NCBI GenBank assembly: GCA_963713615.1
Contig: CAVQMM010000001.1
Location: forward strand, 698,708 to 762,707
Reading direction: 5' to 3'
DNA length: 64,000 bases
Origin: an uncultured Chlamydiae bacterium
Lineage (GTDB): Bacteria > Chlamydiota > Chlamydiia > Chlamydiales > JAJFMA01
Position 1 is the first letter of the stretch; each line of letters opens with the position of its first letter. The position numbers were made by a program, and so were the translations under genes. A model generated the notes under the pieces. That model was given only the letters and a program-made list of their open reading frames with translations. It searched no databases and had not been told where the DNA came from. Shown here piece after piece: positions 33,174 to 46,014 of the stretch.

Positions 33174-34022
33174 ATGCGGGTGAATATGATACTCCAGAAG
33201 CTTCGGCTGCTTTTTTGGACCTCTTTAGGTTTCGCCGGCACAATAGCTGCTGAGCCGCAGCGGTGGGTGGTTTATTACAATAACCAAGCCACATACGAGG
33301 ACCTTCGAGCGTATAATCCTTTAGTTTTTGATAGCGAGACCCATCCTCCATTAAAGCCCTTTCTAGCTAATGACAAAACGACATTAGCCTATATCAGTCT
33401 TGGAGAAGCAGCCACGCATAATTCCTACTTTGCCGATGTTAAGGCGCAGGGGTTGTTGTTAGGGGAAAATTCTAGCTGGCCAGGCAGTTATTTCATCGAT
33501 CTACGCAATCCGCTATGGACGAAGAGAGTTATTGAAGAAATCATTCCTTCAATCCTGTTTCAACGGTTTAGTGGACTGTTTCTCGATACTCTTGATGATG
33601 CTGACTATCTTGAGCAAGAGGATCCGGTAAAGTATAAAGGAATGCGTGAAGCGGCTATAAAGCTCGTTAGAACCATTCGTAAAAATTACCCGATGATTCC
33701 TATCATGATGAACCGTGGTCTCGATATCGCGCCTGCTGTCGTTCATGATATTAACATGATTTTGGCAGAAGCTACCTGGTCATTCTATGATGTTAAGAAA
33801 AAGGCCTATGAACACGTTCCCCAAAAGGAGTATCAGGCATATGCTGATCGTCTTAGGCTTCTGGAGCATGACAACCCCACTTTAACAGTCTATACCCTTG
33901 ATTATTGGGACCCTACCGATGCCAAGGGCATTAGTGCTATCTATCATCTCCAGCGCGAAAATGGCTTTATTCCTTACGTGTCAACGCGAGATCTCCAAAA
34001 GATCATACAGGAACCCAAATAA
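33174..34022 (+). CDS. pelA: Secreted PelA-N-type glycoside hydrolase (TM1410/GH114-like TIM barrel), stand-alone
   Basis: Signal peptide, then WVVYY...LAYISLGEA...WPGSYFIDLRNPLW...FSGLFLDTLDDADYL...IMMNRG. This is the pattern of the endo-alpha-1,4-polygalactosaminidase-like / PelA hydrolase domain. First gene of the pel-like cluster. Confidence 0.7.
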   Translation: MRVNMILQKLRLLFWTSLGFAGTIAAEPQRWVVYYNNQATYEDLRAYNPLVFDSETHPPLKPFLANDKTTLAYISLGEAATHNSYFADVKAQGLLLGENSSWPGSYFIDLRNPLWTKRVIEEIIPSILFQRFSGLFLDTLDDADYLEQEDPVKYKGMREAAIKLVRTIRKNYPMIPIMMNRGLDIAPAVVHDINMILAEATWSFYDVKKKAYEHVPQKEYQAYADRLRLLEHDNPTLTVYTLDYWDPTDAKGISAIYHLQRENGFIPYVSTRDLQKIIQEPK

Positions 34023-34026
34023 ATCT

Positions 34027-44530: not shown

Positions 44531-44622
44531 ACCCACTTGCGATTTTTGAATCTCTTGGCTTTGGCGCGGTCCAAATTCCAAATTTATGATCAATTGTGGT
44601 ATAGCAGCAAAAGGAGGCTTTA

Positions 44623-46014
44623 GTGGCCGGTATAGGGTTTATCTTAAAACGCCTCGCTCAAAAAGAGACGCTTTCAGCGACGCTGCAAAGCTACTTACAT
44701 GCTGCTGTGATCAGTACTGGGCCTTGGCTCATGACCGTCCTTGCCCTGGGAACCGTATTTATCGCTACACGCAACGTGACGTTTCTTGAAGAAGTCTCCG
44801 ACTTTCGCAATATTGTTATGTACAATTTTTGCTTTGCCGCTGTTTTAAGTGCTCCCGTGGTCATGGTAGCGACACGCTTTCTATCGGATAGCATTTACAA
44901 TAGAGACCTGCGACCGGTCCCCGGTATGCTCATAGGGGCACTGGCACTACTATTCTGCGTTGCAGGTCCATTGGCCGGTCTATTTTATTTCGGTGTTACT
45001 AAGCTAAAGGCTCCCGTCGCCCTGTTGGGTGTCATGCACTTCCTCTTGGTTGCCACAACTTCTGTGGTATGCATTTTCCTCTCTGCACTGCGAAACTATC
45101 GGGGTATCACGCTGGCTTTTCTCTTTGGACTCGCATTATCCGTCGCAGGTACACTAGCAATGGCTCAGAATTTCCGCGTTGCGGGTATGCTGGTGGGCTT
45201 TAGCGTTGGTTTTGTCTTTATTGTCGGTGCGATTATCGGTCAGATCTTTGCCGAATATCCCAAAGATTGCCGTAATGTAGCTAGCATTTTGCCCTATTTT
45301 CCCAAGTATTGGGATGTTGGCCTTGCCGCCTTACTTTATGCCATGGGAACCTGGGTTGATAAGTGGGTGATGTGGTTCTCTCCCCAGGCCGTTGTCACCT
45401 CTGCTGGTCTCATCATGTACCCCTATTATGACAGCTCCATGTTCCTAGCCTACCTGACGATGGTTCCAGCTTTGGCAATGTTTATCCTGAACCAGGAAAC
45501 CTATTTTTTTGAGATCTACCTTGAATTCTACCGCAGCATCCTAGGGCATCGCAGTTATAGGACGATTCAAAAAAATCATATCAGCCTATTGTTGGGTTTA
45601 GCAGATATTGGGAGGGGAGTCCTTCTTCTTCAGACATTCGTGTGCGTTGCAGCGTTAGTGCTAGCACCTAAGATATTTGAGGCTTTGGGGTTGAGCTTTG
45701 CAGGTCTCGGCATGTTTCGTTACGGTGTTCTCGGGGTAACTTTTCACGTCTTTCACTTGTTCATATGTGTCTTTTTGTCCTATTTTGATCATAGAGCAGG
45801 GTCCTTAATCGTGGCCGCGGTGTTTCTGGCAACCAATGGTCTATTCACACAGGCAACTATTTGGCTCGGTTTTCCCTTTTATGGGTATGGATACTTTCTA
45901 GCATCGCTTGTCACCTTTGTTGTTGCAGCTATCATCCTTGAGCGCTTTGTATACAATTTGCCATATCAGACGTTCATTCTGAATAATTCGGCCTTAAGGC
46001 AAAAGGGAGTTTGA
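44623..46014 (+). CDS. pelG: PelG-like 12-TM polysaccharide export/MOP-like membrane protein
   Basis: GTG start 7 nt after AAAGGAGG. N-terminus MAGIGFILKRL as I recall for PelG proteins. About 12 hydrophobic helices. At 463 aa, about the length I recall for PelG. Confidence 0.8.
   Translation: MAGIGFILKRLAQKETLSATLQSYLHAAVISTGPWLMTVLALGTVFIATRNVTFLEEVSDFRNIVMYNFCFAAVLSAPVVMVATRFLSDSIYNRDLRPVPGMLIGALALLFCVAGPLAGLFYFGVTKLKAPVALLGVMHFLLVATTSVVCIFLSALRNYRGITLAFLFGLALSVAGTLAMAQNFRVAGMLVGFSVGFVFIVGAIIGQIFAEYPKDCRNVASILPYFPKYWDVGLAALLYAMGTWVDKWVMWFSPQAVVTSAGLIMYPYYDSSMFLAYLTMVPALAMFILNQETYFFEIYLEFYRSILGHRSYRTIQKNHISLLLGLADIGRGVLLLQTFVCVAALVLAPKIFEALGLSFAGLGMFRYGVLGVTFHVFHLFICVFLSYFDHRAGSLIVAAVFLATNGLFTQATIWLGFPFYGYGYFLASLVTFVVAAIILERFVYNLPYQTFILNNSALRQKGV

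Follow-up and report, generated by a model that had tools for sequence, protein, structure and literature searches.

A probable pelC-less Pel-type exopolysaccharide operon with an attached two-component pair on a chlamydial chromosome

A nine-gene, intact and probably functional operon for a Pel-type exopolysaccharide is located on the chromosome of a bacterium that belongs to the Chlamydiota, a reading to which a probability of about three in four is assigned. Pel is a sticky sugar polymer of biofilms. Seven intact, co-directional genes on the + strand, at positions 33174-46014 of the window (the whole 64-kb stretch of DNA that was analyzed), match the Pel machine, and the operon extends past pelG to position 48191 with genes for a histidine kinase and a receiver. 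ORF coordinates and translations place neighboring pel ORFs end to end or with 4-bp overlaps. The GC content of the locus matches that of the remainder of the window. An earlier note had described the seven ORFs as a complete Pel locus in a chlamydia-like genome. Their positions, strand and spacing were borne out, the motifs quoted for them (HHIDGDGW, HTLSHP, LEGSYPYVTGGVSTW, E-x7-E and MAGIGF) were all found in the translations, each family assignment was upheld by profile-HMM, sequence and structure searches, and the gene order A-B-D-E-F-G is that of Pseudomonas aeruginosa pelABCDEFG minus pelC. The word complete holds for a pelC-less variant only. The continuation of the operon into the kinase and receiver genes, the repeat element that accounts for the gap between pelF and pelG, and the loss of the PelD I-site had been overlooked. 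The locus departs from pelABCDEFG in five respects: a split PelA, the lack of pelC, a PelD without RxxD, the two-component pair and the repeat element between pelF and pelG.

The profile-HMM check proposed in that note confirmed PelF and PelG by curated models. PelF (507 aa, 42689..44212, + strand), a GT4 glycosyltransferase with an N-terminal DUF3492 domain and the presumed polymerase, matches the NCBIfam equivalog NF038011 over the full model with 455.8 bits against a cut-off of 100 (E 2.2e-136), as well as Pfam DUF3492 (1.4e-73) and Glycos_transf_1; its GT4 motifs are LEGSYPYVTGGVSTW and E-x7-E (EAQPLVLLE). PelG (463 aa, 44623..46014, + strand), the polytopic inner-membrane Pel exporter, has a GTG start preceded by AAGGAGG, begins MAGIGF, and matches Pfam PF16933 at 6.1e-111 (372 bits, cut-off 29) over model positions 1-452 of 452. 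PelE (354 aa, 41612..42676, + strand; Pfam TPR_19), for which no curated model exists, is an inner-membrane protein with TM and TPR regions encoded between pelD and pelF. It matches the PelE-position gene of the Azospirillum thermophilum pel operon at E 9e-27 (tblastn), and the position of its gene is identical in all related loci.

The functions of PelA are present on two separate polypeptides, each with its own signal peptide. The N-terminal half (282 aa, 33174..34022, + strand) is a secreted GH114 glycoside hydrolase that matches Pfam Glyco_hydro_114 at 7.7e-16 and the PelA hydrolase domain of PDB entry 5tcb at 3.3e-16. The C-terminal half (757 aa, 34027..36300, + strand) is a secreted CE21-type deacetylase flanked by alpha/beta and beta-rich domains; it has zero matches in Pfam or NCBIfam, and phmmer aligned it to chain residues 251-843 of full-length PelA 9cgy at 5.8e-49. 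All nine catalytic or metal-binding residues of PelA, with roles as given in PMC12022489, are conserved over the two halves, namely the equivalents of D160 (FLDTLD) and E218 (LAEAT) in the hydrolase, and of H526/D528/D530 (HHIDGDG), H600/H604 (HTLSHP), E723 (NENIYT) and H761 (LYYHMF) in the deacetylase. In P. aeruginosa PelB is contacted only by the deacetylase and alpha/beta domains of PelA (PMC12022489), and a detached hydrolase is therefore mechanically plausible.

Conservation of every catalytic residue in the GH114 and CE21 enzymes argues for the same substrate, and both modifying enzymes, an alpha-1,4-N-acetylgalactosaminidase and a deacetylase, are Pel-specific. These observations weigh against the reading that Pel-like machinery here makes a chemically different polymer, with another hexosamine or linkage, for which the name Pel would be overstated. 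That reading is favored by the substrate specificity of PelF, which is unreadable from sequence, by the identity of only ~50-55% between this PelF and the proteobacterial PelFs compared, and by the report that divergent pel operons may yield other polymers (Bundalovic-Torma et al., PMC7112194). It is further favored by the lack of an epimerase gene adjoining this locus, versus loci L014 and L015, in which one is adjacent; no UDP-GlcNAc 4-epimerase was present among the window ORFs scanned. We judge a different polymer to be quite improbable.

The pelB gene (36297..40211, + strand) encodes a 1304-aa protein with an N-terminal TM helix, a TPR solenoid and a C-terminal 16-strand outer-membrane porin. 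Pfam gave many TPR matches, and nothing beyond TPR was obtained from Pfam or NCBIfam. The AF2 model of residues 956-1304 (pLDDT 90.6, pTM 0.82) has 16 strands, and its best Foldseek match is PelBC 9h80_M (E 2.6e-13, TM 0.76/0.69); BcsC and PgaA rank far below, with E-values at least five orders of magnitude weaker. PelB homologues finish with an aromatic residue, which is the OMP beta-signal. The PNAG, cellulose and alginate systems were rejected on the basis of these far weaker BcsC and PgaA matches and because no GT2 synthase of the BcsA, PgaC or Alg8 type was found; HMM, sequence and structure searches put every ORF in Pel, as the earlier note had proposed.

PelC is an outer-membrane lipoprotein ring of the GNA1162 family. 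A tblastn search with Azospirillum PelC gave no match at E<=1 in the 64-kb window or in the chlamydial loci, and every ORF at the locus was already assigned, with none left over as a pelC candidate. PelC is essential in P. aeruginosa (PMC12141448), and the absence of its gene counts against reading the operon as functional.

The pelD gene (40230..41615, + strand) encodes a 461-aa protein with four TM helices, a long stalk helix, a GAF domain (Pfam GAF_3, 3.4e-9) and a degenerate GGDEF-fold domain, 36% identical (E 6e-62) to the PelD-position product of the canonical Azospirillum pel operon. Sequence searches of the PDB, run with single sequences and with three profiles of PelD and the PelB porin, missed the PelD and PelB entries and returned only weak GGDEF matches (E 0.07-0.6) and designed TPR proteins, so that structure prediction was needed. 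The AF2 model of PelD has a pLDDT of 90, and its top eight Foldseek matches in the PDB are all P. aeruginosa PelD (E 6e-9 to 3e-8); the PelD and PelB porin models thus find their best matches in P. aeruginosa PelD and PelBC.

P. aeruginosa PelD binds c-di-GMP via an I-site RxxD and a second arginine, the residues concerned being R367, D370 and R402 (PMC7112168). In the PelD of the window the RxxD is replaced by Q394-P-L-G397 and the equivalent of R402 is S425, in a register taken from the family alignment, not from residue-level superposition. The same alignment shows RxxD to be kept in distant PelD homologues and replaced in this PelD and its whole clade. As judged from alignment and predicted structure, the fold of PelD has been retained and the c-di-GMP-binding residues have been lost. 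Many PelD homologues lack the entire C-terminal domain.

The stop codon of pelG overlaps the ATG of a sensor histidine kinase gene (TGATG; 46014..47759, + strand), the product of which has two TM helices, the Pfam domains PAS-PAS-HisKA-HATPase_c and, in the translation, the H-box SHEIRTP. It is followed by a stand-alone CheY-like receiver of 131 aa (47796..48191, + strand; Pfam Response_reg, 4e-30). A homologue of the kinase is located downstream of pelG in six related loci (L002, L003, L004, L006, L008 and L014), and the receiver is 48-79% identical to the product of the gene after pelG or the kinase in seven (L002, L003, L005, L006, L007, L008 and L014). Of the loci without the I-site, 11 have a receiver gene after pelG and one more has the kinase at a contig end; of the 11 loci whose PelD keeps RxxD, none has a receiver gene there. 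Presence of the pair tracks one clade and so is not an independent correlation. A general rule by which I-site loss equals gain of kinase and receiver was dropped, as the pair does not accompany several other PelD groups in which the I-site or the whole domain is missing. The link of the kinase and receiver to Pel is one of synteny, and they may take part in its control. Chlamydiae have been reported to keep histidine kinases and to lose other transducers (PMC1183210), and the genus Chlamydia is without c-di-GMP signaling (PMC10333796). The Rfam scan gave a tRNA-Leu only, with no riboswitch, for c-di-GMP or otherwise, near the operon.

It is tentatively suggested, as a possibility held at less than even odds, that a family-spanning clade of Chlamydiota has kept Pel and rewired its switch from c-di-GMP, a messenger not known from the phylum, to a kinase and CheY-like receiver on a 'blind' PelD. 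On sensing a particular stage, these chlamydiae would deliberately export a cationic polymer as coat or matrix, for instance on contact with the host, during the extracellular stage or in the inclusion lumen. If this is true, a matrix-building or surface-attached phase would exist outside current models of chlamydial biology, and a receiver that gates PelD would be a new control mode for synthase-dependent polysaccharide systems.

Inside the 410-bp gap between pelF and pelG lies a MITE-like palindromic repeat element of 310 bp (44219..44530, no strand assigned), with 115-nt inverted arms that are 87% complementary. Its terminal motif occurs nine times in the 64-kb window versus 0 expected, and the copies align with one another. 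The spacing between pelF and pelG is only 6-70 bp in relatives, which lack the element in an otherwise identical layout. A Logan assembly of the same locus stops 48 bp past the pelF stop codon. Transcription that runs on from pelF into pelG could be lowered by the element. Immediately before pelG there is a promoter-like site; overall, the promoter and terminator scans gave the same counts as shuffled sequences and are therefore uninformative. The interruption of the operon by the element, seen in this genome only among the loci compared, and the absence of pelC would both fit a silent or decaying relic, inactivated by the insertion or by the missing PelC and yielding no product. All nine ORFs are, however, of full length with conserved active sites, pelG has a strong RBS in addition to the promoter-like site, and conservation of the pelC-less layout across divergent genomes implies selection, so that a relic is considered very unlikely and the operon probably functional.

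The full layout, in which pelA is split, pelC is missing and a kinase, a receiver or both come last, was found in L003, L007 and L008, and five further loci (L002, L004, L005, L006 and L014) show it as far as contigs or arrangement allow. Loci with the full layout occur only in MAGs labelled Chlamydiales, Chlamydiae, Parachlamydiaceae or Waddlia. PelF is 72-75% identical to its homologues in L003, a Chlamydiales MAG, and L002, and 68%, 58% and 53% identical to those of Chlamydiae, Parachlamydiaceae and Waddlia MAGs, respectively. The best named matches of PelD and DapL are from Chlamydiales, the SET gene adjoining pelA shares its synteny with L003, and in a neighbor-joining tree of PelD+F+G the chlamydia-labelled loci group together, apart from the alphaproteobacterial clade. 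The genome scan for homologues was pattern-based and is uninformative on the absence of pel from Parachlamydia, Protochlamydia, Waddlia chondrophila and Simkania. On this evidence of MAG labels, best matches and shared layout, the chlamydial source named in the earlier note is well supported, origin from a free-living proteobacterium does not fit, and the pel locus appears to be old in the chlamydial lineage. Recent transfer from Proteobacteria was ruled out by the uniform GC content and by the presence of the locus in divergent chlamydial MAGs that cluster together.

Eukaryote-like RasGEF and SET-domain proteins suggest an intracellular, amoeba-associated organism; NTT translocase, type III secretion and developmental regulator genes were absent from the 64-kb window. 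Alternatively, the contig might come from a relative with a free-living or facultative lifestyle, or from a lineage that bears the wrong label, and an exopolysaccharide operon would be unremarkable there. The contig measures 3,904,876 bp, and 3.9 Mb exceeds, to our knowledge, the described chlamydial genomes. The window also carries genes for the whole of lysine biosynthesis, for an RND efflux pump and an AHL lactonase, and for several sensor kinases; pel genes of Rickettsiales have been taken as a mark of non-intracellular ancestors (PMC9352585). The best PelF, PelD and DapL homologues nevertheless come from several independently binned chlamydial MAGs, the RasGEF and SET-domain proteins are signs of a eukaryotic host, and the SET gene is syntenic with a Chlamydiales MAG; a source of this other kind is regarded as unlikely. 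Since the Rickettsiales genes were used to argue for non-intracellular ancestry, a chlamydial pel locus bears on the evolution of host dependence.

We know of no secreted exopolysaccharide system in chlamydiae, which are regarded as obligate intracellular. The statement of the earlier note that Pel had not been described in them agrees with the literature in the searchable library, which holds no paper linking the two. Automatic annotation by NCBI (PGAP) has already given proteins of some chlamydial MAGs the name PelF; the find is therefore new to the literature but not to the databases. An intact Pel machine, conserved in several chlamydial lineages, is a candidate source of an extracellular coat, adhesin or inclusion-lumen polymer, and hints at a coating of the cells or of their surroundings in some chlamydiae.

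If the system works as in P. aeruginosa, a complex of PelF with PelD, PelE and PelG at the inner membrane would build the chain from a UDP-sugar, UDP-GalNAc being the most likely, with PelF as the polymerase, and the chain would cross the periplasm along the TPR scaffold of PelB. The stand-alone deacetylase would remove part of the N-acetyl groups, the separate GH114 hydrolase would trim the polymer, and release would take place through the 16-strand PelB porin with no PelC ring. The co-transcribed kinase and single-domain receiver may have taken over from c-di-GMP the task of switching Pel on, with the PelD/PelF complex or gene expression as their target, and the product may form a coat or matrix, or act in adhesion, at a stage outside the host or in contact with it. 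For Pel biology the locus is a natural experiment, without PelC, with the hydrolase detached from the deacetylase, and with a PelD fold that lacks the c-di-GMP site beside a two-component pair.

The locus holds a known type of system, in variant form and in a phylum where it was not expected. It shares with P. aeruginosa pelABCDEFG the gene order bar pelC, the matched PelF and PelG models, the PelA catalytic residues and the folds of PelD and the PelB porin. It differs in the division of PelA into two secreted proteins, in the absence of PelC, in Q/G/S at R367/D370/R402 of PelD, in the attached histidine kinase and receiver, and in the divergence of PelD and the PelB porin, too great for sequence searches to reach the PDB entries. 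The second comparison group comprises pelC-less, split-pelA loci of Alphaproteobacteria and related metagenome contigs, among them the 'derived pel cluster' of free-living Rickettsiales (Schön et al. 2022, PMC9352585). In L016 the same arrangement of GH114 (278 aa), deacetylase (753 aa), PelB and PelDEFG is found, likewise with pelC missing, and PelDEFG is common to L010 (a Rickettsiales MAG) and L015. Unlike the chlamydial locus, the alphaproteobacterial-type loci keep the RxxD of PelD (RQTD, RNVD, RSVD), have no kinase or receiver after pelG, and form a separate clade in the PelD+F+G tree. The streptococcal pelDEADAFG operon (Whitfield et al. 2020, PMC7112168), in which PelD is without a GGDEF domain, sets a precedent for Pel machinery in a lineage that has no c-di-GMP signaling, where control has been proposed to run through phosphorylation. 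Streptococci have a Gram-positive envelope and lack PelB, whereas the chlamydial locus has pelB; the whole GGDEF domain is deleted from streptococcal PelD, whereas chlamydial PelD keeps the domain and loses the binding residues only; and the candidate regulator is a CotH-like kinase in streptococci and a classical two-component pair in the chlamydial operon.

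Seven plus-strand ORFs at 33174-46014 make up the pel locus, in the order pelA hydrolase half, pelA deacetylase half, pelB, pelD, pelE, pelF and pelG. They lie exactly where the earlier note had placed them, and every motif quoted there was found in the translations. Neighbouring ORFs overlap by 4 bp or are separated by 4-18 bp; only the sixth and seventh, pelF and pelG, lie further apart (410 bp). The GC content of the locus, 0.45-0.49, is the same as that of the rest of the window. Overlooked in the earlier note, the operon runs on past pelG: the ATG of a membrane histidine kinase gene (PAS-PAS-HisKA-HATPase; 46014-47759, +) overlaps the pelG stop codon (TGATG), and a 131-aa receiver-only response regulator (47796-48191, +) starts 36 bp after the kinase gene.

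The proposed identities of PelF and PelG held in profile-HMM searches, and those of PelD and PelB were supported by structure prediction and comparison with the PDB. PelF matched the NCBIfam equivalog model over its full length at 455.8 bits (cut-off 100), as well as Pfam DUF3492 and GT1, and PelG matched the entire length of Pfam PF16933 (E 6e-111). GAF was the sole match of PelD (461 aa) by sequence methods, and sequence searches from it did not reach the PelD crystal structures; when an AlphaFold model made with 45 homologues as input (pLDDT 90) was compared with the PDB, the eight entries for P. aeruginosa PelD took the first eight places. The C-terminal 349 residues of PelB were modelled as a 16-strand barrel (pLDDT 90.6, pTM 0.82), best matched by the cryo-EM structure of PelBC, 9h80 (E 2.6e-13, TM 0.76), which leads the next matches, BcsC and PgaA, by five orders of magnitude. 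PelE (354 aa) contains TM segments and TPRs. PelE and PelD matched the genes at the same positions of the Azospirillum thermophilum pel operon (E 9e-27 and 6e-62, respectively), in which PGAP annotates pelF, pelG and a GNA1162-family (PelC) lipoprotein.

PelA is split into two proteins, each with a signal peptide. The hydrolase half (282 aa) is a GH114 match in Pfam. It also matches 5tcb, the crystallised hydrolase domain of PelA (E 3e-16), and keeps the equivalents of catalytic D160 and E218. The deacetylase half (757 aa) had no match in Pfam or NCBIfam; it aligned with full-length PelA (9cgy, E 5.8e-49) over the region after the hydrolase domain. All seven key residues, with roles as described in PMC12022489, are kept: the base-activating His, catalytic Asp and metal Asp of HxDxD, the two metal His of HxxxH, the Glu of NEN and the catalytic-acid His of YYH. 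A free hydrolase fits the known assembly, because in P. aeruginosa PelA only the deacetylase and alpha/beta domains contact PelB (PMC12022489).

A PelC query matched nothing in either the window or the chlamydial loci, and every ORF of the locus is already assigned. The pelF-pelG gap is an insertion of a palindromic element with 115-nt arms of 87% complementarity; the junction measures 6-70 bp in relatives, and an assembly from short reads that carries the identical locus stops 48 bp past the pelF stop. MITE-like palindromic intergenic repeats of one family, whose shared terminal inverted repeat measures about 55 nt (TTTAGGAGTAACACGGATGCACACGGATCTAGGAGGATTTAGGAGGAT...), are present at 5293-5456, ~30495-30515, 44219-44530 (between pelF and pelG) and 63392-63663; the 64-kb window holds nine occurrences of the terminal motif vs 0 expected.

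P. aeruginosa PelD binds c-di-GMP through R367 and D370, of the RxxD I-site, and R402 (PMC7112168). Distant members of the 45-sequence PelD alignment carry RxxD (RSVD, RPTD, RNTD and others) where it is expected, ahead of the degenerate GGDEF strand, and canonical Azospirillum PelD keeps it (RDTD). In the family alignment the window PelD has Q394-P-L-G397 at this place, all closer homologues have P/x-x-x-G/A, and the second-arginine position aligns with S425. A survey covered 98 PelD-encoding sequences: that of the window plus 97 retrieved loci, of which 80 came from metagenomes. Of the I-site-less loci, 11 have a receiver gene after pelG and one more has a kinase at the contig end; among RxxD loci with at least 1.5 kb downstream, pelG is followed by a receiver gene in 0 of 11. 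The pair tracks one clade, that holding the window, and is specific to it; other I-site-less groups do not have it, and many PelD homologues are without the whole C-terminal domain. Predicted loss of c-di-GMP sensing by PelD is therefore common across the survey. Published censuses report that chlamydiae retained histidine kinases and lost other transducers (PMC1183210), and that Chlamydia is without c-di-GMP signalling (PMC10333796). Synteny and a streptococcal precedent suggest, tentatively and at slightly less than even odds, that the receiver, once phosphorylated, has taken over the activating role of c-di-GMP.

The contig carrying the window is 3,904,876 bp long, which to our knowledge exceeds any described chlamydial genome. 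The nearest PelF relatives in one-genome-per-species GTDB contigs were a MAG without taxon label (L002, 75% identity), a Chlamydiales MAG (L003, 72%), an uncultured Chlamydiae (L004, 68%), a Parachlamydiaceae (L006, 58%), a Waddlia sp. MAG (L007, 53%) and a further Chlamydiales MAG (L008, 53%); proteobacterial PelFs start only at 50-54%. The PelD homologues with an NCBI name are called 'hypothetical protein' and come from Chlamydiales or Chlamydiia. The synteny looked for in related genomes was found: L003, L007 and L008 have the full layout of two pelA ORFs, pelB, D, E, F and G, then kinase and/or receiver, and L003 additionally shares the divergent SET-domain gene, keeping the SET-pelA adjacency. 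In a neighbour-joining tree of PelD+F+G all chlamydia-labelled loci fall together, separate from an alphaproteobacterial group, and one Francisellaceae locus is left without a settled place. From labels and best hits, including that of the plant/chlamydia-type DapL (best named match a Chlamydiales MAG, 67%), we conclude that the source organism is probably a member of Chlamydiota, a lineage in which pel is probably old. The related activated-sludge contig L014 (451-2694, 14337-16008) has a second PelA deacetylase gene copy upstream of the operon. Its pelF and pelG are separated by an inserted CheB fragment and a second REC-histidine kinase gene, and an NAD-dependent epimerase lies a short way downstream. 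L016, a 1,468,863-bp contig of a small-genome organism, has the same split-pelA, pelC-less operon with RxxD intact in PelD (RQTD) and neither kinase nor receiver; for the I-site question it offers a useful comparison.

The SET-domain protein divergent from pelA (32238-33080, -; Pfam 1.1e-16) is weakly similar to the Legionella effector AnkI/LegAS4. A 791-aa protein (22347-24722, +) with a eukaryote-type RasGEF domain (Pfam 3.5e-33) is a likely host-targeting effector. A compact lysine-biosynthesis cluster (15375-21266, -) encodes DapL (LL-DAP aminotransferase, TIGR03542, 543 bits), a PLP decarboxylase, Asd, DapA and aspartokinase; the decarboxylase, of diaminopimelate/ornithine type (Pfam Orn_Arg_deC_N/Orn_DAP_Arg_deC), is likely LysA. 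An MqsA-like antitoxin domain protein (8-766, +) lies at the window start, followed by an AidB-family quorum-quenching AHL lactonase homologue (776-1684, -; 203 bits, under the equivalog cut-off of 360). At 30537-31385 (-), a protein with an AbiEi-antitoxin C-terminal domain adjoins a gene (31389-32201) whose match to the triosephosphate isomerase model is limited to the N-terminal two thirds of that model. The RND efflux operon (56726-63403, -) encodes an AcrB-like protein (1044 aa), a membrane-fusion protein and an outer-membrane factor (824 aa) with an additional N-terminal ABC_sub_bind-like domain. Downstream of the pel operon, ORFs 48975-51476 (833 aa), 52957-53886 (309 aa) and 54056-55744 (562 aa), all +, had no Pfam match.

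The analysis establishes the set of parts, their catalytic residues and folds, the loss of the I-site, and the structure and conservation of the operon; the product and role of the system, like its regulation, we infer. As in P. aeruginosa, chain polymerisation and translocation would fall to PelDEFG and guidance to the PelB TPRs; the PelB-bound deacetylase would act on the chain and the porin would export it. The conserved pelC-less layout, also present in L016 and others, implies that export may proceed without PelC. A literature search found no paper connecting Pel with chlamydiae, and two systematic surveys (of pel and of PelA) do not mention Chlamydiota; PelF is already named by the NCBI pipeline in some chlamydial MAGs. 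The locus should surprise chlamydia biologists and is a natural variant for Pel researchers. Compared with the P. aeruginosa archetype it lacks two features, PelC and the I-site; the split-PelA, PelC-less layout is common to the window and alphaproteobacterial loci, including those of free-living Rickettsiales (PMC9352585).
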